Origin: Escherichia coli
GTDB taxonomy: Bacteria; Pseudomonadota; Gammaproteobacteria; Enterobacterales; Enterobacteriaceae
Length of the DNA stretch: 64,000 nucleotides
NCBI RefSeq assembly: GCF_044647545.1
Contig: NZ_CP172818.1
Strand: one strand, 5' to 3'
Positions 10,785 through 52,038 of the stretch are shown here, one piece after another. Below the pieces are notes generated by a model that was given only the letters and a program-made list of their open reading frames with translations, was not told the DNA's origin and searched no databases. The translations under genes were made by a program, and so were the position numbers. Each line of letters begins with the position of its first letter. Within the stretch, counting starts at the first letter, position 1.

Positions 10785-11278
10785 TAAGCCCCCACGTAAT
10801 TCCCTGACAGATACCACTCATCACCCGATACAGCGCGCTTGCTGCTTTTCCGTAAACACTGCTCACGACGCGCCAGAAAATTGTTTCGTTCTGGCTGGGA
10901 GTGGCTTTCACGGAATGCCGCCATCCACACCGTTGCAGCACGACGGTATAAGCCCCTGGACTCCAGTTCTTCCGCCTGGCGGGTCAGGCACAAAATCACC
11001 CGGGGATCGTTAGTGCCGACATAGAAATTGCGCACAGGTCTGGTTTCACGAACTGGTTGTGGTTCCGGCTCCTGCGCTCTCTCAGTCAGGCGTGGGAAAT
11101 GTCTGCGTGTATCTCCTTCACAACGGTGAGCCACACGCCCACTCTGACGTAACTTGCTTGCTGACTGCAGAACGCGCTGCCGTGAGTAACCTGCAAAAGC
11201 ATCCGCAATGTCTCCGGAAGTACACCCCGGATGGGCTTCAATGAATTTCTGAACGTCATTTAACAGACTCATGATCAC
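10784..11278 (-). CDS. yfdN: Prophage PerC-family protein (putative transcriptional activator homolog)
   Basis: 164 aa ORF; C-terminal AEELESRGLYRRAATVW matches the PerC/Pch signature; ATGA overlap with upstream yfdO. Confidence 0.7.
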   Translation of the reverse strand: MIMSLLNDVQKFIEAHPGCTSGDIADAFAGYSRQRVLQSASKLRQSGRVAHRCEGDTRRHFPRLTERAQEPEPQPVRETRPVRNFYVGTNDPRVILCLTRQAEELESRGLYRRAATVWMAAFRESHSQPERNNFLARREQCLRKSSKRAVSGDEWYLSGNYVGA

Positions 11279-11643
11279 CCCCTGAATCCTGCCGGGATCT
11301 GGCTGTAGTCCACGTTGTCGTAACTGGATTTGAAGTACGGGTCTTCGCGTTTTTCGGTGTACGTGCTTACGGACGGCGATAAGCGCAGGGAAAGCTCATC
11401 CCATTTTTCCCGCAGCTTCGACGGGCTGAGCACGTTACGGCACCAGAACGGATCGCGGCTGACGCGGCTGTACATCTCGCAGATTTGTTTGTGAGTACGA
11501 CCATCCTGCACACACATCAGGCGAATTTCGTTTGCCCAGGCTGTCCAGTTCGGTTCTTTGGGACGAACCACCTCGCCGTCACATTCGGCGGCTTGCTCGT
11601 ACAGGGCGATGATTTTTTTCCAGAGCCACTGTGCGCAGGTCAA
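11275..11643 (-). CDS. yfdO: Defective phage replication protein O-like fragment (C-terminal domain only)
   Basis: Conserved-looking C-terminal ~145 aa of the 292 aa ORF; no ATG before it, putative TTG start gives about 122 aa; the N-terminal part of the long ORF is antisense to yfdP and looks non-coding. Confidence 0.5.
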   Translation of the reverse strand: MTCAQWLWKKIIALYEQAAECDGEVVRPKEPNWTAWANEIRLMCVQDGRTHKQICEMYSRVSRDPFWCRNVLSPSKLREKWDELSLRLSPSVSTYTEKREDPYFKSSYDNVDYSQIPAGFRG

Positions 11644-11964
11644 ATCATCCTGCGTTCCCCACTGGCGCTTTTTAGGGCTGAATACAACCGCATCAGGATG
11701 GCGAGTTAAAAACTCCTGTTCAGCCGTTTGCGTGTCCGGTTGCGAAGCGTCCGGACGAGAAGAGGTTTTATTCTCTGCGCTTTTGATTTTACGACGTCCG
11801 GACTTCACGGTAAACCCGTTGTTTCCCCCACAATGACCTGACGGGCAGATTTGATGCGCAGATTTTGACGGGTCTGAGTGTGACGGTTGAGAAAAGGAGG
11901 CTGCCGGGAGCTTCCAACGTTTTGCGGAGAAACATCGGCCTGCAATATGATGAGGAGCAGCAAA

Positions 11965-12327
11965 ATGGCTAGCGAACGCAGTACTGATGTGCAGGCATTT
12001 ATTGGGGAGCTGGACGGCGGCGTATTTGAAACCAAAATCGGCGCAGTTCTCAGTGAAGTCGCTTCCGGTGTGATGAACACGAAAACCAAAGGTAAGGTCT
12101 CGCTCAACCTGGAAATCGAACCATTTGATGAGAACCGTGTGAAAATCAAACACAAACTCTCATATGTTCGCCCGACTAACCGCGGGAAAATTTCCGAAGA
12201 AGACACCACCGAAACGCCGATGTATGTCAATCGCGGTGGTCGCCTGACTATTCTGCAGGAAGACCAGGGACAATTACTGACTCTTGCCGGTGAACCTGAC
12301 GGAAAACTCCGCGCAGCAGGTCGTTAA
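11965..12327 (+). CDS. yfdP: Prophage protein YfdP (unknown function)
   Basis: ORF 11887-12327; start chosen at ATG 11965 preceded by GAGGAG, giving the 120 aa form. Confidence 0.65.
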   Translation: MASERSTDVQAFIGELDGGVFETKIGAVLSEVASGVMNTKTKGKVSLNLEIEPFDENRVKIKHKLSYVRPTNRGKISEEDTTETPMYVNRGGRLTILQEDQGQLLTLAGEPDGKLRAAGR

Positions 12328-12392
12328 TATCGCTTTTAATAAACTGATTATTTATCTCATCACTGAATATCTTTATATAGTGAGGACTTATT

Positions 12393-13217
12393 ATGTCTCA
12401 GAACTTAGACGCAACCGCAATTAATCAAATCCATGCCCTTATTTCTGCTCAGGGTGTTAATGAAATTATCAATAATATTGGTGCCGATGCTGTGGCATTG
12501 CCTGAGAATTTCCGCATTCATGATCTGGAAAAATTTAATTTAAATCGCTTCCGTTTCCGTGGTGCACTTTCCACTGCCAGCATCGATGACTTTACCCGTT
12601 ATTCTAAAGATCTTGCAGATGAAGGCACCCGCTGCTTTATCGATGCCGATAATATGCGAGCAGTCAGTGTGCTTAACCTGGGTACTATTGATGAACCAGG
12701 TCACGCAGATAACACCGCCACTCTCAAACTGAAAAAGACAGCACCGTTCTCTGCTCTGTTGTCTGTTAATGGCGAGCGTAACTCCCAGAAGTCACTGGCA
12801 GAATGGATTGAAGACTGGGCCGACTACCTTGTGGGCTTTGATGCTAATGGTGACGCCATTCAGGCAACCAAAGCGGCTGCGGCGATCCGTAAAATCACAA
12901 TTGAAGCGAACCAGACCGCTGATTTTGAAGACAATGACTTCAGCGGCAAACGCTCCCTGATGGAGTCTGTCGAAGCGAAGACCAAAGACATTATGCCAGT
13001 GGCATTTGAATTTAAATGCGTTCCGTTTGAAGGTCTGAAAGAACGTCCGTTTAAATTACGCCTCAGCATTATCACTGGCGATCGTCCTGTACTGGTTCTG
13101 CGCATTATTCAGCTGGAGGCGGTGCAGGAAGAAATGGCTAACGAATTTCGTGATCTGCTTGTTGAGAAATTCAAGGACAGCAAAGTAGAAACCTTTATTG
13201 GTACTTTCACCGCCTGA
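12393..13217 (+). CDS. yfdQ: Prophage protein YfdQ (DUF2303 family, unknown function)
   Basis: 274 aa ORF with good RBS context; same strand as yfdP/yfdR. Confidence 0.7.
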
Positions 13218-13344
13218 TTTCATTACTGCAAATGCCCCTGCGGGGGCATTTATGGAAACGTAATTTACTCAATAATCGCCGGATGGTGAGGGATTCTTTT
13301 TACCAGAATTCAGCGCGGTGCAGCGCATATACGTGGAGAACAAA

Positions 13345-13881
13345 ATGTCATTTATCAAAACTTTTTCTGGGAAGCATTTTTATTATGACAGGATAAATAA
13401 AGACGACATCGATATTAACGATATCGCGGTTTCCCTTTCAAATATCTGTCGCTTTGCCGGTCATCTTTCGCACTTCTACAGCGTCGCCCAACATGCGGTT
13501 CTTTGCAGCCAGTTGGTGCCGCAGGAATTTGCTTTTGAAGCGTTAATGCATGATGCAACAGAAGCGTATTGCCAGGACATTCCCGCACCACTGAAACGCC
13601 TTCTTCCTGACTATAAACAAATGGAAGAAAAAATAGACGCCGTAATCCGTGAGAAATACGGGTTACCCCCAGTTATGAGTACGCCCGTGAAATATGCCGA
13701 TCTCATCATGCTGGCAACCGAACGCCGCGATCTCGGGCTTGATGATGGCTCTTTCTGGCCTGTACTGGAAGGTATCCCGGCAACAGAGATGTTCAACGTG
13801 ATTCCACTGGCTCCAGGCCATGCCTACGGGATGTTTATGGAACGCTTTAACGAATTATCGGAGTTACGAAAATGCGCATGA
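13345..13881 (+). CDS. yfdR: HD-domain phosphohydrolase (5'-deoxynucleotidase-like) YfdR
   Basis: ORF 13318-13881; HD motif region (H..HD...E) around SVAQHAVL / LMHDATEAY; start chosen at MSFIKTF (178 aa). Confidence 0.75.
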   Translation: MSFIKTFSGKHFYYDRINKDDIDINDIAVSLSNICRFAGHLSHFYSVAQHAVLCSQLVPQEFAFEALMHDATEAYCQDIPAPLKRLLPDYKQMEEKIDAVIREKYGLPPVMSTPVKYADLIMLATERRDLGLDDGSFWPVLEGIPATEMFNVIPLAPGHAYGMFMERFNELSELRKCA

Positions 13882-14234
13882 ATGTTTTCGAAATGGAAGG
13901 ATTTCTTCGCGGGAAATGTGTACCGCGAGATCTGAAAGTGAATGAAACGGATGCTGAATACCTGGTGCGTAAATTTGATGCGCTTGAAGCTAAATGTGCA
14001 GCACTGGAAAACAAAGTAATACCAGTGTCAGCTGAACTGCCGCCAGCGAATGAAAGTGTTCTGTTATTTGATGCTAATGGAGAAGGCTGGCTGATTGGCT
14101 GGCGTTCTCTCTGGTATACATGGGGGCAAAAAGAAACCGGAGAATGGCAGTGGACATTTCAGGTCGGGGACCTTGAAAACGTCAACATCACTCACTGGGC
14201 AGTAATGCCAAAAGCACCGGAGGCTGGAGCATAA
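13872..14234 (+). CDS. yfdS: Prophage protein YfdS (unknown function)
   Basis: 120 aa ORF overlapping the yfdR stop (translational coupling). Confidence 0.7.
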   Translation: MRMNVFEMEGFLRGKCVPRDLKVNETDAEYLVRKFDALEAKCAALENKVIPVSAELPPANESVLLFDANGEGWLIGWRSLWYTWGQKETGEWQWTFQVGDLENVNITHWAVMPKAPEAGA

Positions 14235-14389
14235 TGACCACTTTACCGATAAAGAACTGATTAAAGAAATCAAAGAGCGAATCAGCAGCATGGACGTGCG
14301 AGACAATGTTGAGCGCCGTGCTTATGAAATTGCTCGCACCGCTGCAGGGGACACCATCCTTGTGTTTATCCCTAAAACCACATAAAAAC
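14234..14389 (+). pseudogene. yfdT-like small phage ORF with lost start (1-nt frame change after the ATG); spans the attR core
   Basis: ATG at 14234 overlaps yfdS stop (TAATG) but reads only MTTLPIKN*; the adjacent frame encodes a start-less 48-codon ORF (HFTDKELIKEIKERISS...IPKTT*). Confidence 0.4.
14342..14356 (+). repeat. 15-nt copy of the argW 3' end (CTGCAGGGGACACCA): prophage attR core
   Basis: Exact match to the last 15 nt of tRNA-Arg(CCU), including CCA, about 3.9 kb from the truncated argW. Confidence 0.6.
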
Positions 14390-14455
14390 CGTAAATTATT
14401 AAATTCGCACTAGCAGTGCCGAATAAGGCACACCAGGAACTCGTGGTCTTATTCA

Positions 14456-15391
14456 TTATGAAGTGGTTTTTACCTGTTCTCTTAACCAAGTAATAAATGC
14501 CTCAATTTTTGGCCACTGCCTGCCCGGTAATGTGGTGATGTAATAATGCTGATGGCATTTCACCGTCATATCGCCAAACGGCGCGACGAGCTCACCACTG
14601 GCAAGCCTTTTTTGTACCAGGCGTTTTCTTCCCATCGCTACCCCAATATGATTCATCGCAGCGATAACAGCTAAATCAGAACGATCAAAGCCAATCCCAG
14701 AAGATGTCGGCAAATTAACCGCATAATGTTGCGCCCAACTATGCCATTCATCCGTACCGGAGTCGTTGCTCCATGCCTGTCTGTCATGGAGCAACGAACA
14801 GTGGCGCAGGTTAATTACCTGGTTGGTTAAAGCATGTCTTTGAGCGTATTCCGGGCTACATACAGGCAAGATTTCTTCATCCATCAGAAAGTGATGAGCC
14901 AATTGCGCTGACGGCGCATCATCAAAGTAGATCGCCAAATCGATTCCGGCACGTTGCAAATTGACATTGTCATTACCAGTGAGCACGGTGAGCGAAATAG
15001 ACGGATATCGGCGTGTAAAGTCACCTAATGCGGGCACCAACCAGCATTGGGCGATAGAGGGCCGGGAATACAGCGTTAACGTTCCCGATAATTCCTGATT
15101 TTTGATATCAAGAATTTCCTGGTTCAGGGTATCCAGCGACGATTTTAGCGCCCAATAAACGCGTTTCCCCTCGTGCGTTAATTCCACTTTGCGATGGGAA
15201 CGAACAAACAACTGAATACCTAATTCTTCTTCCAGATGATTGATACGGTGACTTACCGCACTGGGGCTCAGCGACAATTCCTCTGCCGCAAGGGCGAAGG
15301 ACTGATGCCTGGCAGCCACTTCAAAAGTATGCAGTTTTGATAGTTGCCAGCCGTTAAGCAGTCGATTTCTTATTTCACGAAGGGGTTCCAT
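14456..15391 (-). CDS. dsdC: LysR-family activator of D-serine detoxification DsdC
   Basis: ORF 14456-15397; N-terminal HTH (LSKLHTFEVAARHQSFALAAEELSLSPSAVSHRI); divergent from dsdXA; start chosen at MEPLREI. Confidence 0.85.
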   Translation of the reverse strand: MEPLREIRNRLLNGWQLSKLHTFEVAARHQSFALAAEELSLSPSAVSHRINHLEEELGIQLFVRSHRKVELTHEGKRVYWALKSSLDTLNQEILDIKNQELSGTLTLYSRPSIAQCWLVPALGDFTRRYPSISLTVLTGNDNVNLQRAGIDLAIYFDDAPSAQLAHHFLMDEEILPVCSPEYAQRHALTNQVINLRHCSLLHDRQAWSNDSGTDEWHSWAQHYAVNLPTSSGIGFDRSDLAVIAAMNHIGVAMGRKRLVQKRLASGELVAPFGDMTVKCHQHYYITTLPGRQWPKIEAFITWLREQVKTTS

Positions 15392-15608
15392 AATCACCTC
15401 ATTTTTCTCTTAAGTGTAAAAAAATAGCGGCAAAATTTCAGCTGCAAGGTGAACTAAAGTGAACCATATCTCAATTCACCTTCATTTTTAGATGTAAATC
15501 ACTCCCTTGATGCAATTTAGCTCACGTGAAAGGCAAATTTTATCGTTTGTCAGCCTGCGTTGTTTTTTTGTCCAATATCATCAGGTTAATCACAGGGGAA
15601 GGTGAGAT

Positions 15609-16946
15609 ATGCACTCTCAAATCTGGGTTGTGAGCACGCTGCTTATCAGCATCGTGTTAATTGTACTGACCATCGTGAAGTTCAAATTCCACCCGTTTCT
15701 GGCGCTGTTGCTGGCCAGCTTCTTCGTGGGAACGATGATGGGTATGGGACCACTGGATATGGTAAATGCTATTGAAAGTGGAATTGGCGGAACGCTGGGG
15801 TTCCTTGCTGCGGTTATCGGCCTGGGCACGATACTGGGAAAAATGATGGAAGTATCCGGGGCCGCAGAAAGAATTGGTCTGACACTTCAACGCTGTCGCT
15901 GGCTTTCAGCTGATGTCATTATGGTGCTGGTTGGCCTGATTTGCGGCATCACGCTGTTTGTTGAAGTGGGCGTCGTGCTATTGATTCCTCTGGCTTTTTC
16001 AATTGCAAAAAAAACCAATACCTCATTGTTAAAGCTGGCCATTCCGCTGTGTACCGCATTGATGGCAGTGCACTGCGTGGTTCCCCCACATCCGGCTGCT
16101 TTATATGTTGCCAATAAGCTTGGCGCAGATATCGGTTCGGTGATCGTCTACGGTTTGCTGGTTGGGCTGATGGCATCACTGATCGGTGGCCCACTTTTCC
16201 TTAAATTTCTGGGTCAACGACTGCCCTTTAAACCTGTACCCACAGAGTTTGCCGATCTCAAAGTTCGCGATGAAAAAACACTACCGTCATTAGGCGCAAC
16301 GTTATTCACCATACTGCTACCCATTGCGCTGATGTTGGTTAAAACGATTGCCGAATTGAATATGGCGCGTGAGAGTGGTTTGTATACCTTGCTTGAGTTT
16401 ATTGGCAACCCTATTACTGCCATGTTTATCGCCGTGTTTGTCGCCTATTATGTGTTGGGTATACGCCAGCATATGAGCATGGGGACGATGCTCACACATA
16501 CGGAAAATGGCTTCGGTTCTATTGCTAATATTTTGCTGATTATCGGGGCCGGAGGCGCATTCAACGCCATTTTAAAAAGCAGCAGTCTCGCTGATACGCT
16601 GGCAGTTATTCTCTCCAATATGCATATGCACCCGATTCTTCTGGCCTGGTTGGTGGCACTTATTCTGCATGCTGCAGTGGGCTCCGCTACGGTGGCAATG
16701 ATGGGGGCAACGGCAATTGTTGCACCCATGCTGCCGCTGTATCCCGACATCAGCCCGGAAATTATTGCGATTGCTATCGGTTCAGGTGCGATTGGCTGCA
16801 CGATCGTTACGGACTCGCTTTTCTGGCTGGTGAAGCAATATTGCGGCGCTACGCTCAATGAAACATTTAAATACTATACGACAGCGACATTTATCGCTTC
16901 AGTCATCGCTCTGGCGGGCACATTCCTGCTGTCATTTATCATCTAA
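15609..16946 (+). CDS. dsdX: D-serine transporter DsdX (GntP family)
   Basis: 445 aa polytopic membrane protein, GntP-like; immediately upstream of dsdA. Confidence 0.9.
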
Positions 16947-16963
16947 GCGCAAAGAGACGTACT

Positions 16964-18295
16964 ATGGAAAACGCTAAAATGAACTCGCTCATCGCCCAGT
17001 ATCCGTTGGTCAAGGATCTGGTTGCTCTTAAAGAAACCACCTGGTTTAATCCTGGCACGACCTCATTGGCTGAAGGTTTACCTTATGTTGGCCTGACCGA
17101 ACAGGATGTTCAGGACGCCCATGCGCGCCTGTCTCGTTTTGCACCCTATCTGGCAAAAGCATTTCCTGAAACTGCTGCTACTGGGGGGATTATTGAATCA
17201 GAACTGGTTGCCATTCCGGCTATGCAAAAACGGCTGGAAAAGGAATATCAACAACCGATCAGCGGGCAACTGCTACTGAAAAAAGATAGCCATTTGCCCA
17301 TTTCCGGCTCCATAAAAGCACGCGGCGGGATTTATGAAGTCCTGGCACATGCAGAAAAACTGGCTCTGGAAGCGGGGTTGCTGACGCTTGAAGATGACTA
17401 CAGCAAACTGCTTTCCCCGGAGTTTAAACAGTTCTTTAGTCAATACAGCATTGCTGTGGGCTCAACCGGAAATCTGGGGTTATCAATCGGCATTATGAGC
17501 GCCCGCATTGGCTTTAAGGTGACAGTGCATATGTCTGCTGATGCCCGGGCGTGGAAAAAAGCGAAACTGCGCAGCCATGGCGTTACGGTCGTGGAATATG
17601 AGCAAGATTATGGTGTTGCCGTCGAGGAAGGACGTAAAGCAGCGCAGTCTGACCCGAACTGTTTCTTTATTGATGACGAGAATTCCCGCACGTTGTTCCT
17701 TGGGTATTCCGTCGCTGGCCAGCGTCTTAAAGCGCAATTTGCCCAGCAAGGTCGTATCGTCGATGCTGATAACCCTCTGTTTGTCTATCTGCCGTGTGGT
17801 GTTGGTGGTGGTCCTGGTGGCGTCGCATTCGGACTTAAACTGGCGTTTGGCGATCATGTTCACTGCTTTTTTGCCGAACCAACGCACTCCCCTTGTATGT
17901 TGTTAGGCGTCCATACAGGATTACACGATCAGATTTCTGTTCAGGATATTGGTATCGACAACCTTACCGCAGCGGATGGCCTTGCAGTTGGTCGCGCATC
18001 AGGCTTTGTCGGGCGGGCGATGGAGCGTCTGCTGGATGGCTTTTATACCCTTAGCGATCAAACCATGTATGACATGCTTGGCTGGCTGGCGCAGGAAGAA
18101 GGTATTCGTCTTGAACCATCGGCACTGGCGGGTATGGCCGGGCCTCAGCGCGTGTGCGCATCAGTAAGTTACCAACAGATGCACGGTTTCAGCGCAGAAC
18201 AACTGCGTAATGCCACTCATCTGGTGTGGGCGACGGGAGGTGGAATGGTGCCGGAAGAAGAGATGGAGCAATATCTGGCAAAAGGCCGTTCATAA
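16964..18295 (+). CDS. dsdA: D-serine dehydratase (D-serine ammonia-lyase) DsdA
   Basis: ORF with PLP-lysine region (SGSIKARGG) typical of D-serine dehydratase. Confidence 0.9.
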
Positions 18296-18399
18296 CGTTT
18301 CAACGCAGCATCGCCATCCTTTCCCTGGGTGAGCGATGCTGCCGATGGCGCAGACTTAAGATCCCCGGTCTTACCCGCTATAACCCCTTGCTTTTACCA

Positions 18400-19938
18400 T
18401 CACCCAACGCCTTTCGCTGTAAACGGCGGTTTCGCAAACCAAACCAAAACCGTAAGTAAGATAAAAGCAATAGCCGCCATACGGAAAATCTCATTTGCAG
18501 AAATAGAAAGTGACTGCTGGGTTATTTCATTATTAATTTCATTAAGAACTCCTGAAAGCGAACCATAGTATTTATCCATAATTTGTGACGATGAATTAAA
18601 CACGGGGTTAAATTGATCGATGGTTGCTGTCAACTGACTATGGTGTAACGATTCGCGGCGTCCCCACAGTGTCATTGTCAACGACGTACCAACTGATCCT
18701 GACAAGGTGCGAAAAAAATTACTCATACTCGAGGCATTGGCAAATTTATTATCTGGCAAGCCTGAAAACGAAATCGTTGTTAAGGGTAAAAAGAAACAGG
18801 CAACGGCGAATCCCTGGAAAAACTGTGGCAAAATGATGCCTGTAAAATCAATCGTTGGCATAAATGTCACAGAACGCCAGTAATAGCAAACCGCATACAT
18901 CAAAAAACTAAATGTCACCAACAACCGCATATCTATTTTGTTGCCATAACGCCCTATCAAAGGTGATATTAATAGCGGCATGATACCGATGGGCGCATAG
19001 GCAAGTCCGGCCCATATCGCATTATACCCCATCGTTTCCTGGAGTAACTGCGGCATAAGGACGATCGCTCCAGAGTAAAATAAATACGCGCATGTGATAC
19101 TCACAATACCAATGGTGAAATTACGGGACTTAAACAAACTGAGATCAAGAATCGGGTTCTCTGAGGTCGACTCCCAAATGACTAAAGAGATCAGAGAAAT
19201 AACTGATACTACTGTTAATATTATTATTGTACTCGAGTTGAACCAATCCAGATCGCGCCCTTTATCAAGCATAATTTGCAAGCCACCAACACCGAGCACT
19301 AACAGGGTCAGTCCTGGTAGATTCATTTTGACCGGTGAAGTCTCAGTTTCTCGTCCTTTAAGTAAGGTTAAGCATAATGTCAGGACGATAATCCCCATAG
19401 GGACATTGATTAAAAATATCCAACCCCAGCTAAAGTTATCACAAATATAACCGCCCAATATCGGCCCACATATCGGCGCGATAATCACGGTCATAGACCA
19501 TAATGCCAGAGCAAATGTTCTTTTTTCTGGTGGATAATTCCTTAATAATAAACTCTGTGACAGTGGAATTAACGGCCCCGCCATTAATCCCTGAACGACT
19601 CTAAAAAATATCAGCACATCAAGATTGGTCGATAAACTACACATTAAGGAAGACAGCGAAAAAAAAGTGACTGAAAGTAAAAATAACCTTAATTCGCCTA
19701 TTCTTTGTGCCAGCCTGCCGGTAACAGGGATCGCAATGGCATTTGCTACGCCAAACGAAGTGATAACCCAGGTGCCTTCGTCTGTTGATGCTCCCAGAAA
19801 GCCAGATATTGTCGGTATTGCGACGTTAGAAATAGTGGAATCCAACATTTGCATAAACGTCGCTAATGACAATGCAATAGTAACGCACCATAACGTCCCA
19901 CCGGTTAATGGTGCCGGAGTTGATTTAGTGATTGCCAT
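18400..19938 (-). CDS. emrY: MFS multidrug efflux transporter EmrY (EmrB paralog)
   Basis: 512 aa, 14-TMS MFS-type; start overlaps emrK stop. Confidence 0.9.
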   Translation of the reverse strand: MAITKSTPAPLTGGTLWCVTIALSLATFMQMLDSTISNVAIPTISGFLGASTDEGTWVITSFGVANAIAIPVTGRLAQRIGELRLFLLSVTFFSLSSLMCSLSTNLDVLIFFRVVQGLMAGPLIPLSQSLLLRNYPPEKRTFALALWSMTVIIAPICGPILGGYICDNFSWGWIFLINVPMGIIVLTLCLTLLKGRETETSPVKMNLPGLTLLVLGVGGLQIMLDKGRDLDWFNSSTIIILTVVSVISLISLVIWESTSENPILDLSLFKSRNFTIGIVSITCAYLFYSGAIVLMPQLLQETMGYNAIWAGLAYAPIGIMPLLISPLIGRYGNKIDMRLLVTFSFLMYAVCYYWRSVTFMPTIDFTGIILPQFFQGFAVACFFLPLTTISFSGLPDNKFANASSMSNFFRTLSGSVGTSLTMTLWGRRESLHHSQLTATIDQFNPVFNSSSQIMDKYYGSLSGVLNEINNEITQQSLSISANEIFRMAAIAFILLTVLVWFAKPPFTAKGVG

Positions 19939-21101
19939 TAAAGTTGTCCATTATGCGAAATAATGTTGCTAATTTCTTTTTCTATCGGACTGGTATCGAT
20001 AATTAAAGCCTTACTGGTATAAGCAGGCATGGACGTCACGGTTGAAGCCAGATCGGGCATATCGGCAATGTCTTCGTTCCTGGTATCAATAGTTGCAGTC
20101 ATCGATAAACCAATGCGCAAGGGATGTTCCATGAGTTCTTTTGGATCAAGAGAAACCTCAACCGGTACACGCTGAACGATTTTGATCCAATTCCCTGTCG
20201 CATTTTGTGCAGGTAATAAGGAGAACGCATTGCCGGTTCCCATATTGATCCCTGTCACCCGACCATGAAACACAACATTTTCACCATAAAGATCGCTAAT
20301 AATATTGACCGATTGACCAATCCGCACATCCGTGAGTTGTGTTTCTTTAAAGTTGGCATTAACCCACATTTGACGTGCCGGTACGACAGCCATTAACGAT
20401 TGTCCGGGACTCACTGTTTCGCCGACCTGAACACTTCGCTGGGCAATATAGCCGGTAACCGGACTCTTAATATCCGTACGTTTAAGCGCCAACCAGGCTT
20501 CTTTGGTTGCATCCGCCGCTTCAACGACTTGTGGCTGACGGTTTAATGGTGTGTTCATTACTAAAGCTTTATTCGCTTTATAAGCCTGAATAGCAGCATT
20601 CAATGCCGCTTTGCTACTTATTAACGTATCTTTGGTATGCTCCAGCGTTTCTTTTGAAATAACCCCCTGCTTCGCTAAAGGTACACGACGGTTATAATCT
20701 TCTAAAGATTGTTGATACTGAATACGAGCTGAAGCGACTTCGGCACTGTATTGTTTATCCTGTAAGTACAGTTTATTCGTTTGCCGAACAATATTGGCCA
20801 GATTATTTTTAGCTTTATTGAGTGCGATAGTGGCATCAGTCTTATCCAGTGAGACTAAAATGTCACCCTGTCGAACGTAGTTCGTATCTTTATGATTAAC
20901 GACAGTGACGCTGCCTGAAACTTGTGCAGAAATTGGATCTGCATTTCCCGTGACATAGGCGTCATCTGTACTAATCATGTCTTCTAATTCCATTGACCAA
21001 TAGGCATAGGCACCTGAAAACGCAATAAATAAAACTACCGCTAACAAAGCAAAATATTTTTTTCTGTCAGAATGTTTTTTATTTGAATTAATCTGTTCCA
21101 C
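19938..21101 (-). CDS. emrK: Membrane fusion protein EmrK (EmrA paralog)
   Basis: 387 aa, single N-terminal TM then coiled-coil/HlyD-like periplasmic domain. Confidence 0.9.
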   Translation of the reverse strand: MEQINSNKKHSDRKKYFALLAVVLFIAFSGAYAYWSMELEDMISTDDAYVTGNADPISAQVSGSVTVVNHKDTNYVRQGDILVSLDKTDATIALNKAKNNLANIVRQTNKLYLQDKQYSAEVASARIQYQQSLEDYNRRVPLAKQGVISKETLEHTKDTLISSKAALNAAIQAYKANKALVMNTPLNRQPQVVEAADATKEAWLALKRTDIKSPVTGYIAQRSVQVGETVSPGQSLMAVVPARQMWVNANFKETQLTDVRIGQSVNIISDLYGENVVFHGRVTGINMGTGNAFSLLPAQNATGNWIKIVQRVPVEVSLDPKELMEHPLRIGLSMTATIDTRNEDIADMPDLASTVTSMPAYTSKALIIDTSPIEKEISNIISHNGQL

Positions 21102-21274
21102 TTTTATCTCTCATTTCGCATAGATGAAATTTATGAATTGAATGAAAAGAGAATTCATTCTTCATATCAAACACAGTGCATGTGTTGCACATTATCCCAG
21201 GAACGTTGGAGGCCTAATTTAAATGAGGTGCAAAAAAAACAACAGAGGACTAAACCGTGGCTTTTGCAATACAA

Positions 21275-21303
21275 TTCTTACGCCTGTAGGATTAGTGAGA
21301 AGA
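21275..21303. promoter_or_regulatory. Candidate EvgA box in the emrK-evgA divergent promoter region
   Basis: TTCTTACGCCTGTAGGATTAGTGAGAAGA contains TTCYTAC / TGTARGA-like half-sites matching the EvgA inverted-repeat consensus. Confidence 0.45.
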
Positions 21304-21515
21304 CTTATAGTGCTAATGTGAAACTATAAATCATCGGTACAATCCCTGATTTTATTGTTGACATTTCATATATGCCGACTATTTATATGGTATACTTGTC
21401 GAATTATCTTAAAGGAAGCTCAAATTTTCTTATTTTTTTGAGAAAATGAGATGATGCCTTATGTCTGTATTACTACAGGGAGAAGGGAAATGCTTCATTG
21501 CAAAGGGAATAATCT

Positions 21516-22130
21516 ATGAACGCAATAATTATTGATGACCATCCTCTTGCTATCGCAGCAATTCGTAATTTATTGATCAAAAACGATATTGAAATCTTAG
21601 CAGAGTTGACTGAAGGCGGAAGTGCCGTTCAGCGGGTGGAAACACTTAAGCCTGATATCGTCATCATTGATGTCGATATCCCCGGAGTTAACGGTATCCA
21701 GGTGTTAGAAACGCTGAGGAAGCGCCAATATAGCGGAATTATTATTATCGTCTCCGCTAAAAATGACCATTTTTACGGGAAACATTGTGCTGATGCTGGC
21801 GCTAATGGTTTCGTGAGTAAAAAAGAAGGCATGAACAATATCATTGCGGCTATTGAAGCTGCAAAAAATGGCTACTGCTATTTCCCTTTCTCTCTCAACC
21901 GGTTTGTTGGAAGTTTAACGTCCGACCAGCAAAAACTCGACTCCTTATCGAAACAAGAAATTAGTGTCATGCGGTATATTCTTGATGGCAAGGATAATAA
22001 TGACATTGCTGAAAAAATGTTCATCAGCAACAAAACTGTCAGCACGTATAAAAGTCGCTTGATGGAAAAATTAGAATGCAAATCACTGATGGATCTTTAC
22101 ACATTCGCACAACGTAACAAAATCGGCTAA
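21516..22130 (+). CDS. evgA: Response regulator EvgA (NarL/FixJ family)
   Basis: 204 aa; receiver domain (IIIDDHP...D52-like) plus C-terminal LuxR-type HTH. Confidence 0.92.
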   Translation: MNAIIIDDHPLAIAAIRNLLIKNDIEILAELTEGGSAVQRVETLKPDIVIIDVDIPGVNGIQVLETLRKRQYSGIIIIVSAKNDHFYGKHCADAGANGFVSKKEGMNNIIAAIEAAKNGYCYFPFSLNRFVGSLTSDQQKLDSLSKQEISVMRYILDGKDNNDIAEKMFISNKTVSTYKSRLMEKLECKSLMDLYTFAQRNKIG

Positions 22131-22134
22131 CCAC

Positions 22135-25100
22135 ATGAAGTTTTTACCCTATATTTTTCTTCTCTGTTGTGGTCTTTGGTCGACCATAAGTTTCGCAGAC
22201 GGAGATTACATCGAATATCGTGGCATCAGTAGTAACAACCGTGTCACACTTGATCCACTACGTCTGAGCAACAAGGAATTACGTTGGCTCGCGAGCAAAA
22301 AAAATCTTGTGATTGCAGTACACAAGTCCCAAACAGCTACGTTGTTGCATACCGATTCGCAGCAACGGATTCGTGGTATTAATGCTGATTATTTAAATCT
22401 TTTAAAAAGAGCGTTAAATATCAAATTAACACTCCGGGAATACGCAGATCATCAAAAAGCAATGGACGCGCTGGAAGACGGTGAAGTTGATATAGTGTTA
22501 TCACATTTAGTTGCTTCGCCGCCTCTTAATGATGACATTGCTGCAACTAATCCTCTGATAATTACCTTTCCTGCGTTGGTCACTACCCTTCACGATTCAA
22601 TGCGACCGCTTACCTCATCAAAACCAGTAAATATTGCTCGAGTAGCAAATTATCCCCCAGACGAGGTAATTCATCAATCATTTCCAAAAGCAACAATTAT
22701 CTCTTTTACAAATTTATATCAGGCATTAGCATCCGTCTCAGCCGGACAGAATGATTACTTTATTGGTAGTAACATCATTACCAGCAGTATGATTTCCCGT
22801 TATTTTACTCACTCCTTAAATGTAGTGAAGTATTATAACTCACCGCGTCAATATAACTTTTTATTAACCAGAAAAGATTCAATCGTTCTTAATGAAGTAC
22901 TCAATCGATTTGTTGATGCTTTAACAAATGAAGTTCGCTATGAAGTATCACAAAATTGGCTTGATACAGGAAACCTGGCCTTTCTGAACAAACCATTAGA
23001 ACTCACTGAACATGAAAAACAGTGGATTAAGCAGCATCCCGATTTAAAGGTGCTAGAAAATCCTTACTCGCCACCCTATTCTATGACAGATGAAACTGGC
23101 TCAGTTCGGGGCGTGATGGGTGATATTCTTAATATTATTACCTTGCAAACAGGTTTAAATTTTTCTCCGATCACCGTTTCACACAATATTCATGCTGGGA
23201 CACAGCTTAACCCCGGTGGATGGGATATATTGCCCGCCGCTATTTATAGTGAAGATCGAGAAAATAATGTTTCATTTGCTGAAGCTTTCATAACAACGCC
23301 TTACGTTTTTGTCATGCAAAAAGCGCCTGACAGTGAACAAACATTAAAAAAAGGAATGAAAGTTGCCATTCCATATTATTATGAGCTTCATTCGCAATTA
23401 AAAGAGATGTATCCGGAGGTAGAGTGGATAAAAGTCGATAACGCCAGCGCTGCATTTCACAAGGTCAAGGAAGGTGAACTTGATGCTCTGGTCGCGACAC
23501 AGTTAAATTCGCGTTACATGATCGACCATTACTATCCTAATGAACTTTATCATTTTCTTATTCCCGGCGTTCAGAATGCATCACTTTCGTTCGCTTTTCC
23601 TCGCGGAGAACCGGAACTTAAGGATATTATTAATAAAGCACTGAATGCAATTCCCCCAAGCGAAGTTCTGCGCCTGACGGAAAAATGGATTAAAATGCCC
23701 AATGTGACCATTGACACATGGGACCTCTATAGCGAGCAATTTTATATTGTCACGACATTATCCGTTTTATTAGTTGGCAGTAGCCTTTTATGGGGATTCT
23801 ACCTGTTACGCTCAGTTCGTCGTCGTAAAGTCATTCAGGGTGATTTAGAAAACCAAATATCATTCCGAAAAGCACTCTCGGATTCCTTACCGAATCCAAC
23901 TTATGTTGTAAACTGGCAAGGTAATGTCATTAGTCATAATAGTGCTTTTGAACATTATTTCACTGCGGATTACTACAAAAATGCAATGTTACCATTAGAA
24001 AACAGTGACTCACCCTTTAAAGATGTTTTTTCTAATGCGCATGAAGTCACAGCAGAAACGAAAGAAAATCGAACAATATACACACAGGTATTTGAAATTG
24101 ATAATGGCATCGAGAAAAGATGCATTAATCACTGGCATACATTATGCAATCTGCCAGCAAGCGAACATGCTGTTTATATTTGTGGTTGGCAAGATATTAC
24201 CGAGACGCGTGATTTAATTCATGCACTCGAAGTAGAGAGAAATAAAGCGATCAATGCAACTGTCGCAAAAAGTCAGTTTCTGGCAACAATGAGTCACGAA
24301 ATAAGAACACCAATAAGCTCCATTATGGGCTTCCTGGAACTTCTGTCGGGTTCTGGTCTTAGCAAGGAGCAACGGGTGGAGGCGATTTCACTTGCCTACG
24401 CCACCGGACAATCACTCCTCGGCTTAATTGGTGAAATCCTTGATGTCGACAAAATTGAGTCGGGTAACTATCAACTTCAACCACAATGGGTCGATATCCC
24501 TACTTTAGTCCAGAACACTTGTCACTCTTTCGGTGCGATTGCTGCAAGCAAATCCATCGCATTAAGTTGCAGCAGTACGTTTCCTGAACGCTACCTGGTT
24601 AAGATCGACCCTCAGGCGTTTAAGCAGGTCTTATCTAATTTACTGAGTAATGCTCTCAAATTTACTACCGAGGGAGCAGTAAAAATTACGACCTCCCTGG
24701 GTCACATTGATGACAACCACGCTGTTATCAAAATGACGATTATGGATTCTGGAAGTGGATTATCGCAGGAAGAACAACAACAACTGTTTAAACGCTATAG
24801 CCAAACAAGTGCAGGTCGTCAGCAAACAGGTTCTGGTTTAGGCTTAATGATCTGCAAAGAATTAATAAAAAACATGCAGGGCGATTTGTCATTAGAAAGT
24901 CATCCAGGCATAGGAACGATATTTACGATCACAATCCCGGTAGAAATTACCCAACAAGTGGCGGCTATAGAGACAAAAGCAGAACAACCTATCACACTAC
25001 CTGAAAAGTTGAGCATATTAATCGCGGATGATCATCCGACCAACAGGCTATTACTCAAACGCCAGCTAAATCTATTAGGATATGATGTTGATGAAGCCAC

Positions 25101-25728
25101 TGATGGTGTGCAAGCGCTACACAAAATCAGTATGCAACATTATGATCTGCTTATTACTGACGTAAATATGCCGAATATGGATGGTTTTGAGTTGACTCGC
25201 AAACTCCGTGAGCAAAATTCTTCCTTACCCATCTGGGGGCTTACAGCCAACGCACAGGCTAACGAACGTGAAAAAGGGTTAAATTGCGGCATGAACTTAT
25301 GTTTGTTCAAACCGTTGACTCTGGATGTACTGAAAACACATTTAAGTCAGTTACACCAGGTTGCGCATATTGCACCTCAGTATCGCCACCTTGATATCGA
25401 GGCCCTGAAAAATAATACGGCGAACGATCTACAACTGATGCAGGAGATTCTCATGACTTTCCAGCATGAAACGCATAAAGATCTACCCGCTGCGTTTCAT
25501 GCACTAGAAGCTGGCGATAACAGAACTTTCCATCAGTGTATTCATCGCATCCACGGTGCGGCTAACATCCTGAATTTGCAAAAGTTGATTAATATTAGCC
25601 ATCAGTTAGAAATAACACCTGTTTCAGATGACAGTAAGCCTGAAATTCTTCAGTTGCTGAACTCTGTAAAAGAACACATTGCAGAGCTGGACCAGGAGAT
25701 TACTGCTTTCTGTCAGCAAAATGACTAA
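22135..25728 (+). CDS. evgS: Hybrid sensor histidine kinase EvgS (BvgS-like)
   Basis: 1197 aa; two periplasmic solute-binding-like domains, TM, HisKA (MSHEIRTP), HATPase, receiver and HPt domains. Confidence 0.92.
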   Translation: MKFLPYIFLLCCGLWSTISFADGDYIEYRGISSNNRVTLDPLRLSNKELRWLASKKNLVIAVHKSQTATLLHTDSQQRIRGINADYLNLLKRALNIKLTLREYADHQKAMDALEDGEVDIVLSHLVASPPLNDDIAATNPLIITFPALVTTLHDSMRPLTSSKPVNIARVANYPPDEVIHQSFPKATIISFTNLYQALASVSAGQNDYFIGSNIITSSMISRYFTHSLNVVKYYNSPRQYNFLLTRKDSIVLNEVLNRFVDALTNEVRYEVSQNWLDTGNLAFLNKPLELTEHEKQWIKQHPDLKVLENPYSPPYSMTDETGSVRGVMGDILNIITLQTGLNFSPITVSHNIHAGTQLNPGGWDILPAAIYSEDRENNVSFAEAFITTPYVFVMQKAPDSEQTLKKGMKVAIPYYYELHSQLKEMYPEVEWIKVDNASAAFHKVKEGELDALVATQLNSRYMIDHYYPNELYHFLIPGVQNASLSFAFPRGEPELKDIINKALNAIPPSEVLRLTEKWIKMPNVTIDTWDLYSEQFYIVTTLSVLLVGSSLLWGFYLLRSVRRRKVIQGDLENQISFRKALSDSLPNPTYVVNWQGNVISHNSAFEHYFTADYYKNAMLPLENSDSPFKDVFSNAHEVTAETKENRTIYTQVFEIDNGIEKRCINHWHTLCNLPASEHAVYICGWQDITETRDLIHALEVERNKAINATVAKSQFLATMSHEIRTPISSIMGFLELLSGSGLSKEQRVEAISLAYATGQSLLGLIGEILDVDKIESGNYQLQPQWVDIPTLVQNTCHSFGAIAASKSIALSCSSTFPERYLVKIDPQAFKQVLSNLLSNALKFTTEGAVKITTSLGHIDDNHAVIKMTIMDSGSGLSQEEQQQLFKRYSQTSAGRQQTGSGLGLMICKELIKNMQGDLSLESHPGIGTIFTITIPVEITQQVAAIETKAEQPITLPEKLSILIADDHPTNRLLLKRQLNLLGYDVDEATDGVQALHKISMQHYDLLITDVNMPNMDGFELTRKLREQNSSLPIWGLTANAQANEREKGLNCGMNLCLFKPLTLDVLKTHLSQLHQVAHIAPQYRHLDIEALKNNTANDLQLMQEILMTFQHETHKDLPAAFHALEAGDNRTFHQCIHRIHGAANILNLQKLINISHQLEITPVSDDSKPEILQLLNSVKEHIAELDQEITAFCQQND

Positions 25729-25766
25729 ATAGCGGCTCCCACAATGTTCAAATGTGGGAGCTATTT
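25729..25766. terminator. Bidirectional terminator hairpin between evgS and yfdE
   Basis: GCTCCCACA-N9-TGTGGGAGC inverted repeat followed by TATTT. Confidence 0.6.
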
Positions 25767-25783
25767 ACCAGCACATCTTACAT

Positions 25784-26929
25784 TTATGATGAGAACTCCT
25801 GGCGAATTTGTTCCCCATGCTGGTCGAGCGTTGCCGCTCCCGGCATAACATGCGGGTCCGCACAGCCGCTAATTTTTATCGGATTACCCGGCATCATTAT
25901 TCCCCCGGCTTCAATCAACATATTTCTTGCCTGAGTTTGTGGTAAATTAATGGCCTCAGCCACACTTAATAACGGCGCGACAGGCACACCAACTTCATGT
26001 ATTCTGGCTAACCAAACTTCAGCTGCCTGCGTTTTTAACGTCCGCTCAATATATTGTTTAAGAATAGCCTGGTTTTGTACGCGTAAAATATTGCTGATAA
26101 ATCGGGGATCATCAACCAGCTCCGTCAGATCCAGTGCCTGACATAACGCAGAAAAAAGCTTGTCATTACCACAACAAATCGTAATCGGCTTATCCTGAGT
26201 ATCGAAAACATCAAAAGGTGCCATGTAGGGATGGCGATTTCCCAGACGTTGTGGTGACTTCCCAGTCGCGATATATGCCATCAGTCCGTGCTCCAGAAAA
26301 CTCAGAGTGGCATCAAACATCGCTATATCGACATGCGCACCTCTCTGGCTCTTTTCGCGGCCATAAAGTGCACTCACTATTCCACTGAATAAATAAACAC
26401 CGCCACATAGATCCGCAAGAGAGGTACCAACGCGCACTGGCGGAGCATCAGGGTATCCTGTTTCCATCATTATCCCGCTCATTGCCTGAATGATGGTATC
26501 GTAGGCAGGAGCATCTTTTAGCGGACCGGTATGTCCGAAACCTGACGATGAAGCATATATAAGGCGCGGGTTGATTTCTTGTAACCTTTCCCATGAAAAC
26601 CCGAGTTTTTCCATTGTACCTGGGCGAAAATTCTCAGCTAATACATCAGCTTGTTTAAGCATATTTATAAATATACTTTTATCGTGATCATTCTTTAAAT
26701 CAAGAACCACACTCTCTTTGCCATGATTAATAAAACTGTAATAGAGTGACTGTCCATCCACATAGGGACCAAATGTGCGGGTATCATCACCATGGCCCGG
26801 CGGCTCAACTTTAATTACCCTTGCGCCCATATTACAAAGAAGTTGAGTTCCGAAAGGTCCATTAAGGACATGTGTCATATCGATAACTAATAAGCCTTCA
26901 AACGGCCCTTTGCTTTCATTATTTGTCAT
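25784..26929 (-). CDS. yfdE: Acetyl-CoA:oxalate CoA-transferase YfdE (family III CoA-transferase)
   Basis: ORF 25784-26968; CaiB/BaiF family features; start chosen at MTNNESKG (381 aa). Confidence 0.85.
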   Translation of the reverse strand: MTNNESKGPFEGLLVIDMTHVLNGPFGTQLLCNMGARVIKVEPPGHGDDTRTFGPYVDGQSLYYSFINHGKESVVLDLKNDHDKSIFINMLKQADVLAENFRPGTMEKLGFSWERLQEINPRLIYASSSGFGHTGPLKDAPAYDTIIQAMSGIMMETGYPDAPPVRVGTSLADLCGGVYLFSGIVSALYGREKSQRGAHVDIAMFDATLSFLEHGLMAYIATGKSPQRLGNRHPYMAPFDVFDTQDKPITICCGNDKLFSALCQALDLTELVDDPRFISNILRVQNQAILKQYIERTLKTQAAEVWLARIHEVGVPVAPLLSVAEAINLPQTQARNMLIEAGGIMMPGNPIKISGCADPHVMPGAATLDQHGEQIRQEFSS

Positions 26930-27002
26930 TTGCTTATGCCTTGAAAAAAGCCGAAGGTGAAAAGACACTTCGGCATTTATGTAAAATCAATAACATGATT
27001 AA

Positions 27003-27947
27003 TTATGAAACCAGTCGACTGACATAAATCCACAAGGGAGCCGTGACGACAAAACCCAGTACGCTCACAGCCAATGACGCTGTACCAGTGCGGGTGTAGA
27101 CATTAAACCGACTGGCAATAATGATTCCGGAGAATGCCGGCGGTAATGCGCCTGCCAGTACCATCATCTGCAAATGTTCGCTGTTCAAATGACATGCCAT
27201 ACCCACGAGAAGCAGCGCCAGTGGCATCAGAATCAGCTTCAGGAAGGTGTTATAAGCAATTTCGGCACTGAACTCGAATTTATGTGCAGCCAGAGTCAAC
27301 CCCGCAGCGAACACCGCTACCCCTGAGTTAGCCTTCGCAATCAGATTAAAGGTTGGGTCCCATGCTGCCGGAATTTTTACCCCAACCAACACCAGGATCG
27401 TTGCCAGAACAGGTGCCCATACTACTGGCTCCTTTGCCGCAGAAATTAATGCGCTCAGATTACTATTCTTCTTACCATCCGCTCCTGAGGAAGGATTCAG
27501 CAAATACAGACCAATAGGAATAGTAATTGCGTTAACAATAATAGAAATAATTGCTACCACTAAACCTGTTGATACGGAATCACCATAAATAGGATCGAGA
27601 ACTGCAAACCCCAGGAATCCGATGGTAGGTGAGCCTGCAATTAATGCACATACTGCTGCTTCTGCATGGGTACGTTTAAAAAATTTGTAGCAACCAAACC
27701 AGGAGAAAAAGAAACATCCGACAATAACCACAAGTGATACAAGGGTCAGGCGAGTGTCCGCAAAAATCATTTCCCTGTTTGCCCGGGTAATAGAAACAAA
27801 TAGGGCCGCAGGAAGAGCGTAGTTTAATACCAGTTTATTAAATGCCCGGGCTTGATCTTCTGAAAAAGTTTCTCGTCTGCCGCTAAAATAACCCAACAGC
27901 ATGATTACGATAATAGGCAATAAATCGCCAATAAAAAATGTTAGCAT
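27003..27947 (-). CDS. yfdV: AEC-family transporter YfdV
   Basis: 314 aa membrane protein of the auxin-efflux-carrier type, inside the oxc/frc cluster. Confidence 0.85.
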
Positions 27948-52001: not shown

Positions 52002-52038
52002 GACCATACAGGGATAATTCCCCGGTTTTTTACGCCTG

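Follow-up and report, generated by a model that had tools for sequence, protein, structure and literature searches.

Intact dsdCXA genes beside a fossil KplE1-type prophage border at the argW locus of Escherichia coli

The window analysed here, a 64,000-nucleotide stretch of an Escherichia coli chromosome (NZ_CP172818.1, assembly GCF_044647545.1), carries its genes in the order sixA-fadJI-fadL-yfdF-mlaA-yfdC ... dsdCXA-emrYK-evgAS ... alaXW ... valUXY-lysV. The subject of this report is the D-serine utilisation cluster dsdCXA, together with the prophage border that adjoins it at the tRNA gene argW. The cluster consists of three genes and a presumed shared control region, the regulatory role of which is established for the dsd locus:

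14456-15391, minus strand: dsdC, 311 amino acids, intact; LysR-type activator of dsdXA, with the stop codon appearing as TTA on the plus strand at 14456-14458.
15392-15608: divergent dsdC/dsdXA control region, 217 bp between both genes, identical in sequence type 648 (ST648) genomes.
15609-16946, plus strand: dsdX, 445 amino acids, intact; D-serine transporter of the GntP family.
16964-18295, plus strand: dsdA, 443 amino acids, intact; pyridoxal phosphate-dependent D-serine ammonia-lyase.

Gene identity was assessed with NCBIfam equivalog models and their curated cut-offs, and K-12 proteins were used for pairwise identity. DsdC matched NF007491 with 596 bits (cut-off 316) over residues 1-309 of 311 and also matched TIGR02036, DsdX matched the equivalog NF007395 with 940 bits (cut-off 618) over positions 1-445 of 445, and DsdA matched TIGR02035 with 814 bits (cut-off 368) as well as NF002823, the DsdC and DsdA matches likewise being to full-length equivalogs. 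Compared with the K-12 proteins, 305 of 311 residues in DsdC, 442 of 445 in DsdX and 440 of 442 in DsdA are identical (98-99%), and DsdA has one additional C-terminal residue. Based on these full-length matches and the absence of internal stops in all three genes, the cluster is intact. dsdC on the minus strand diverges from dsdX-dsdA on the plus strand, the latter two being separated by 17 bp, and with full-length DsdC, DsdX and DsdA in this divergent layout the genes are a dsdCXA cluster in every respect considered. The substitution of cscRAKB for dsdC and the 5' part of dsdX does not occur in the window, where both dsd genes are intact. In such a cluster D-serine together with DsdC would switch on dsdXA, DsdX would take up D-serine and DsdA would yield pyruvate and ammonia. 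The presence of dsdCXA without csc thus predicts a D-serine-utilising, sucrose (csc)-negative strain, a prediction of modest practical value; the literature ties this profile to extraintestinal and commensal lineages and not to intestinal pathogens positive for the locus of enterocyte effacement.

Downstream of dsdC, on the left in the orientation given, the host sequence ends within a short distance at a prophage attachment core:

14342-14357, no strand assigned: attR core of KplE1 type, 16 nt, CTGCAGGGGACACCAT, the sole copy in the window.
14358-14455, no strand assigned: host spacer from the core to the dsdC stop, 98 bp, 100% identical to ST648 genomes with an empty site.

The core CTGCAGGGGACACCAT is found a single time in the window, against 3e-5 chance occurrences expected, and it is letter for letter the published duplicated 16-nt core of KplE1/CPS-53 (PMC2951348); the 3' end of argW makes up its first 15 nt. 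Genomes with an empty argW site regain homology to the window exactly at 14342 and stay 100% identical for 12,954 bp, and positions 14342-22000 are 97.6% identical to K-12 host DNA. To the left, positions 10516-14330 align as a single block with the interior of K-12 CPS-53 (yfdM' to yfdT') at 94.9% identity, which marks this side of the core as prophage DNA. The preliminary description of this locus had placed dsdCXA immediately beside attR at argW, and a core at 14342-14357 with the dsdC stop 98 bp farther on bears this out. Its estimate that host sequence restarts about 100 bp before the dsdC stop agrees with the 98-bp spacer, the start it gave (14357) being the last base of the core.

The spacer forms stable hairpins on both strands (fold z-scores of -3.1 on the plus and -2.1 on the minus strand), which suggests that it probably terminates the converging transcription of argW and dsdC. 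A consensus terminator scan called no terminator within 14358-14455, and a scan of the control region and the spacer for consensus promoters and terminators returned nothing above shuffled expectation. No effect of the prophage on dsd expression is expected, because the junction lies downstream of dsdC, at the end away from its promoter, and leaves the spacer unchanged.

The prophage DNA itself is short. K-12 locus segment L001 supplied the reference coordinates for the comparison with CPS-53, and the following parts were recognised:

10505-14341, no strand assigned: cryptic prophage remnant of KplE1/CPS-53 type, 3.8 kb, aligning to L001 9001-12852 at 94.9%.
10509-10784, minus strand: yfdM', remnant gene.
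10784-11278, minus strand: yfdN, intact.
11275 to about 11980, minus strand: yfdO', remnant gene.
11965-12327, plus strand: yfdP, intact.
12393-13217, plus strand: yfdQ, intact.
13345-13881, plus strand: yfdR, intact.
13872-14234, plus strand: yfdS, intact.
14234 to about 14337, plus strand: yfdT', frameshifted and truncated.

The five intact open reading frames (yfdN, yfdP, yfdQ, yfdR and yfdS) show 97-99% protein identity to K-12, and the order yfdM'-N-O'-P-Q-R-S-T', enclosed between a truncated argW (argW') on one side and the core with dsdC on the other, is collinear with K-12. The closest known system is therefore the argW-CPS-53(KplE1)-dsdCXA arrangement of K-12 (PMC2951348), with which the window shares the 16-nt core abutting dsdC, the host flank, the collinear yfdM'-yfdT genes and internal scars. 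While K-12 keeps 10.2 kb of an excisable element with intact argW, the attL core, intS, gtrABS, tail-fibre fragments, full yfdT and torI, the window has only 3.8 kb at 94.9% nucleotide identity, with a single core and a truncated argW, intS and torI being absent. Two blocks account for the difference: L001 3239-9000, with the argW 3' end, intS, gtrABS, yodE, tfaS, yfdK and yfdL, and L001 12853-13465, with the 3' part of yfdT, torI and the attR arm. On the right, 1 nt is deleted from yfdT' at codon 3-4, and the gene breaks off after about codon 33; phage homology stops there at about 14337, roughly 600 bp present in K-12 are missing, and 6 nt of filler (GCACCG) precede the core.

Of the KplE1 border with its two core copies (attL and attR), both present in K-12, the window retains one (at 14342), and intS beside attL and torI beside attR have no counterpart in it. 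With a single core copy and without intS and torI, the element is unable to excise. A functional attR would combine the core with a phage arm that has binding sites for TorI and arm-type sites for IntS, and this arm is gone from the window. The attR seen here is a fossil: it has lost its arm, the element lacks intS, torI and the attL copy of the core, and argW itself is truncated.

The scars common to K-12 and the remnant are the cut of yfdM' after its NPPY codons and the yfdO'/yfdP junction, and they indicate a common origin of the remnant and K-12 KplE1 in one defective element. Every sampled copy differs from the remnant by about 5% (best match 95.8%), and 362 genomes contain at least 80% of the remnant. 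Phages SfIV and SfV match the right part of the remnant at 97.3% identity; an intact phage-like element as its identity was rejected, phage genomes covering at most 63% of it. Some finer details of the remnant were also recorded. An iteron-like block in yfdO' (11716-11885, with GATTTTGACGGGTC-type repeats) contains fewer repeats than its K-12 counterpart, with which it is only about 64% alignable, whereas the other remnant DNA is 94-99% identical. The frameshifted yfdT'/ea22-like frame would continue through the att core as far as a stop in host DNA at 14384-14386, forming a chimeric phage-host pseudogene frame at 14234-14386.

At the left end of the remnant, where a complete argW would be expected, the window has two features:

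10458-10498, plus strand: argW', the 5' part of tRNA-Arg(CCU), nt 1 to about 39-41, through the anticodon loop; no longer a tRNA gene.
10499-10517, no strand assigned: left junction filler from argW' to yfdM', about 20 nt, scrambled, containing TCGATT and AGGAGGG.

argW' agrees with the argW of K-12 and of E. coli FDAARGOS_497 as far as the anticodon arm and then diverges. Transfer RNAs were detected with ARAGORN and Rfam: ARAGORN found argW in K-12 and FDAARGOS_497 and none in the window, and Rfam gave no match in 10300-10700 even at E<=10. Within the filler, TCGATT corresponds to the argW T-loop motif and AGGAGGG is the inverse of CCCTCCT from the argW anticodon stem; its origin could be traced no further than 9-11-mer matches, consistent with chance, in K-12 CPS-53 and other loci. 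Both junctions were searched for in 5,426 complete E. coli genomes, metagenome contigs, viral contigs and genome contigs (species-representative genomes). The left junction was absent from all of these, and exact-protein look-ups of the junction-spanning yfdM' frame found no match. In the case of the right junction, the probe yielded only two-piece matches containing torI, and the junction was in no collection searched.

Window positions 10516-10518 correspond to L001 9001-9003, meaning that yfdM' starts at the same nucleotide in both, while the DNA to its left differs completely, being argW' in the window and yfdL in K-12. There is a resemblance between GGGGGATTACCA on the yfdM side and the att core GGGGACACCA. 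IntS recombination between the attL core and this yfdM pseudo-core was considered as the origin of the left end and rejected, the scrambled 3' half of argW being unlike a clean exchange; the resemblance of GGGGGATTACCA to GGGGACACCA is kept as a lead only.

The nearest relatives of this chromosome have an empty argW site. From 14342 onward, the 40 genomes that best match the dsdC region are identical to the window, nearly all of them with a tRNA-Arg beneath the match, and strains named ST648, IMT16316 and MS6198 are among them, from which the lineage of the relatives is taken to be ST648, a member of phylogroup F (PMC12736214). In FDAARGOS_497 the empty site reads yfdC, argW, 99 bp, dsdC. Against the window this genome is 100.000% identical over 14342-27295 (12,954 bp) and over 1707-7524, has no mismatch over 26826-64000 and differs by one single-nucleotide polymorphism (SNP) over 7537-10498. 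The empty ST648 junctions (FDAARGOS_497, strain ST648, IMT16316) share with the window flanks at 100% identity, the same dsdCXA alleles and the 98-bp spacer; unlike the window, they have an intact argW, no prophage DNA and a 189-bp repeat unit in a yfdF-like gene.

Within the ST648 family the argW site is mostly empty, carries a 40-kb prophage in EM10-18-28 and holds the 3.8-kb remnant in the window. The EM10-18-28 element (NZ_CP063476.1; L009 2612-42889) is a complete P22/HK620-like prophage within the same boundaries, intS adjoining argW and torI adjoining dsdC, and its presence shows that the argW site is in active use in this lineage. A derivation of the remnant from this prophage was rejected, as the gene content differs (P22-like). 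The suggestion that presence and integrity of the locus are informative for strain typing is supported by these differences in site state even within the ST648 family, and the occupant of the argW-dsdC interval, with three states in the family, is a useful high-resolution marker.

Across the species the locus is far from uniform. In a survey of the same 5,426 complete genomes, a probe reaching from attR to dsdA (14342-18295) found some match in 5,400 and none in the other 26, and at least 80% of it was covered in 2,717. Among lower-coverage matches sampled at even spacing, 19 of 20 covered only 16729-18295, that is the last 218 bp of dsdX and dsdA. Position 16729 within dsdX is thus a fixed breakpoint, to the left of which roughly half of the complete E. 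coli genomes have no homology, and attR, dsdC and the 5' part of dsdX are present together in 2,817. In the O157 strain Xuzhou21, the only such genome that was examined, cscB-K-A-R lies left of 16729 and replaces dsdC and most of dsdX. This csc-substituted locus, found in enterohaemorrhagic E. coli O157:H7, E. coli W and many other strains (PMC4366372, PMC3032704), shares its position, dsdA and the last 218 bp of dsdX with the window. It differs in carrying cscB-K-A-R in place of dsdC and most of dsdX, which makes strains sucrose-positive and D-serine-sensitive, while the window has full dsdCXA and no csc.

The unoccupied yfdC-argW-dsdC junction is contiguous in 911 genomes, the others breaking at the core or lacking dsdC. 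Invariance of the locus across E. coli, which would have contradicted the preliminary description, is therefore not what these counts show, and its view of argW-dsdCXA as a known variable, recombination-prone locus is backed by both the published hotspot and the survey. This variability is already known and adds no new biology: the hotspot itself, the mutual exclusivity of csc and dsd, their distribution over phylogroups and pathotypes and the decay of prophages in the interval have all been published (PMC4366372, PMC11251922, PMC3032704, PMC9659370). The 5,400 matching genomes contained 5,685 matching places, with at most three per genome, which points to extra dsd copies in a minority of strains; second dsdCXA copies fit the duplication reported in K1 strains (PMC9659370). 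The CE10-type K1 strains, which cause neonatal meningitis, also offer a parallel for the decay seen here, as they carry degraded, CUS-3-like argW prophages beside dsdC with documented progressive loss of the interval (PMC9659370). CUS-3, however, is P22-like and has neuO under DsdC regulation, whereas the remnant in the window is of KplE1 type and lacks neuO.

Based on these comparisons, the locus is very probably a normal chromosomal dsdCXA in its ancestral place just downstream of argW, beside a KplE1-type fossil. KplE1/HK620/Sf6-type phages integrate via the tyrosine integrase IntS at the last 15-16 nt of argW, and every such prophage sets its attR core at the same spot, so that dsdC always lies 98 bp away. 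Since unoccupied sites have argW 99 bp away from dsdC, the closeness of the two is ancestral and was not made by the prophage, and the adjacency says nothing special about this particular element. The dsd genes and the 3' flank are untouched, being identical to those of the empty-site relatives.

The history of the fossil is a separate matter. A site-specific gain or loss at the core may have come first, either a KplE1-type integration in this chromosome or a precise excision in its relatives, of which the K-12 KplE1 is capable (PMC2951348). Deletions at the ends could then have trapped the remnant. The left one would have taken the 3' half of argW with the attL core, intS, gtrABS and tail-fibre fragments. 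The right one would have removed torI together with the end of yfdT and the arm of attR, stopping 6 nt short of the core. A site-specific event at the core, whether gain or loss, fits best with flanks that are perfectly identical to those of the empty-site relatives. As to the identity of the locus and its boundary, nothing contradictory was found. Several points, however, weigh against this history. The remnant is about 5% diverged and sits in a frame with a single SNP in about 60 kb relative to FDAARGOS_497, so that decay in situ since integration cannot account for it. Both junctions are missing from every collection searched, and the left deletion ends a few nucleotides from the old yfdL/yfdM' scar of K-12, which this history does not explain.

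Alternatively, the remnant and the truncated argW could have been imported as one block from an unsampled KplE1 donor, by homologous recombination following transduction or conjugation, into an ST648 chromosome with an empty site, and the end deletions would then be old and belong to the donor lineage. This is a possible course of events that we nevertheless consider doubtful. It would accommodate the old scars common with K-12, the divergence of about 5% and a frame clonal with empty-site ST648, and the SNP at 8636 could be a donor marker. Against it, donor SNPs are absent both from the 50 kb to the right of the core and from 8637-10498 on the left. A K-12-like donor also differs within the spacer (an ATTATT/ATT indel and following substitutions), which would leave no more than a few tens of bp beside the core for the right crossover, and the donor junctions are nowhere in the searched collections.

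It is less probable still, and on the whole improbable, that errors of assembly or consensus, for example from mixed-culture misjoins or long-read homopolymers, produced the junctions and the other private indels, and that the true site is empty or holds a complete KplE1. Such errors would explain why four private structural differences stand against one SNP relative to FDAARGOS_497, why two of them involve an A-run (A7, 7523-7529) or a hairpin (the 11-bp TAAAAAAGCCG deletion near 52010), and why both prophage junctions are unique across the collections. Chimeric joins, however, occur at shared repeats and create no fillers of 6-20 nt, the divergence of the remnant is coherent, with intact frames at 97-99% protein identity, and the right boundary coincides exactly with the biological core. 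That dsdCXA is itself part of a mobile island that arrived with the prophage, as the literature term 'argW-dsdCXA genetic island' and the second copies elsewhere in some strains (5,685 places in 5,400 genomes; PMC9659370) might suggest, is extremely unlikely given identical dsdCXA in 911 genomes without an argW insert and in empty ST648 sites at 100%, a phage/host boundary that is the att core left of dsdC, dsd genes that diverge from K-12 like the flanking host genes (97.6%) and the lack of dsdCXA in any of the phage matches.

Returning to the fossil as a product of end deletions at an ancestral locus, the window might represent a natural argW-null E. coli of ST648 type, in which two such deletions trap a KplE1 core fragment and destroy tRNA-Arg(CCU) together with most of the attB/attL context. 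This is a tentative proposal to which we give less than even weight. Loss of argW would be tolerable because argU also reads AGG, and argW has been reported dispensable (PMC4652775). If the proposal is true, AGG would be decoded by argU alone, the argW site would be partly closed to HK620/Sf6/CUS-3/KplE1-type phages and dsdCXA would be fixed beside a non-excisable remnant. The wider interest would then lie in the natural loss of the argW tRNA and of both att arms, leaving a locked integration site.

Other elements in some E. coli split argW much nearer its 5' end, after nt 22-27, as in ERL06-2503 (L005 about 6141-6168) and MB07152 (L006 about 6141-6162), which suggests that argW is targeted at more than one position. 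Neither annotation nor prediction gives a tRNA at the yfdC side in either genome.

Elsewhere in the window, indels and structural changes relative to FDAARGOS_497 outweigh SNPs, which is unusual; the sole substitution in about 60 kb of shared DNA is the SNP at 8636, in mlaA. A yfdF-like gene at 7164-8223 is split into two open reading frames, where AAAAAAA (7523-7529) replaces the 189-bp repeat unit of the ST648 relatives and leaves the gene 1 nt over the standard 1059-nt yfdF; this junction was found in none of the complete E. coli genomes. At about 52010, between nupC and pdeA, an 11-bp deletion of TAAAAAAGCCG relative to FDAARGOS_497 interrupts an otherwise mismatch-free alignment of 37 kb. 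It probably lies within a terminator hairpin and could be either real or a consensus error.

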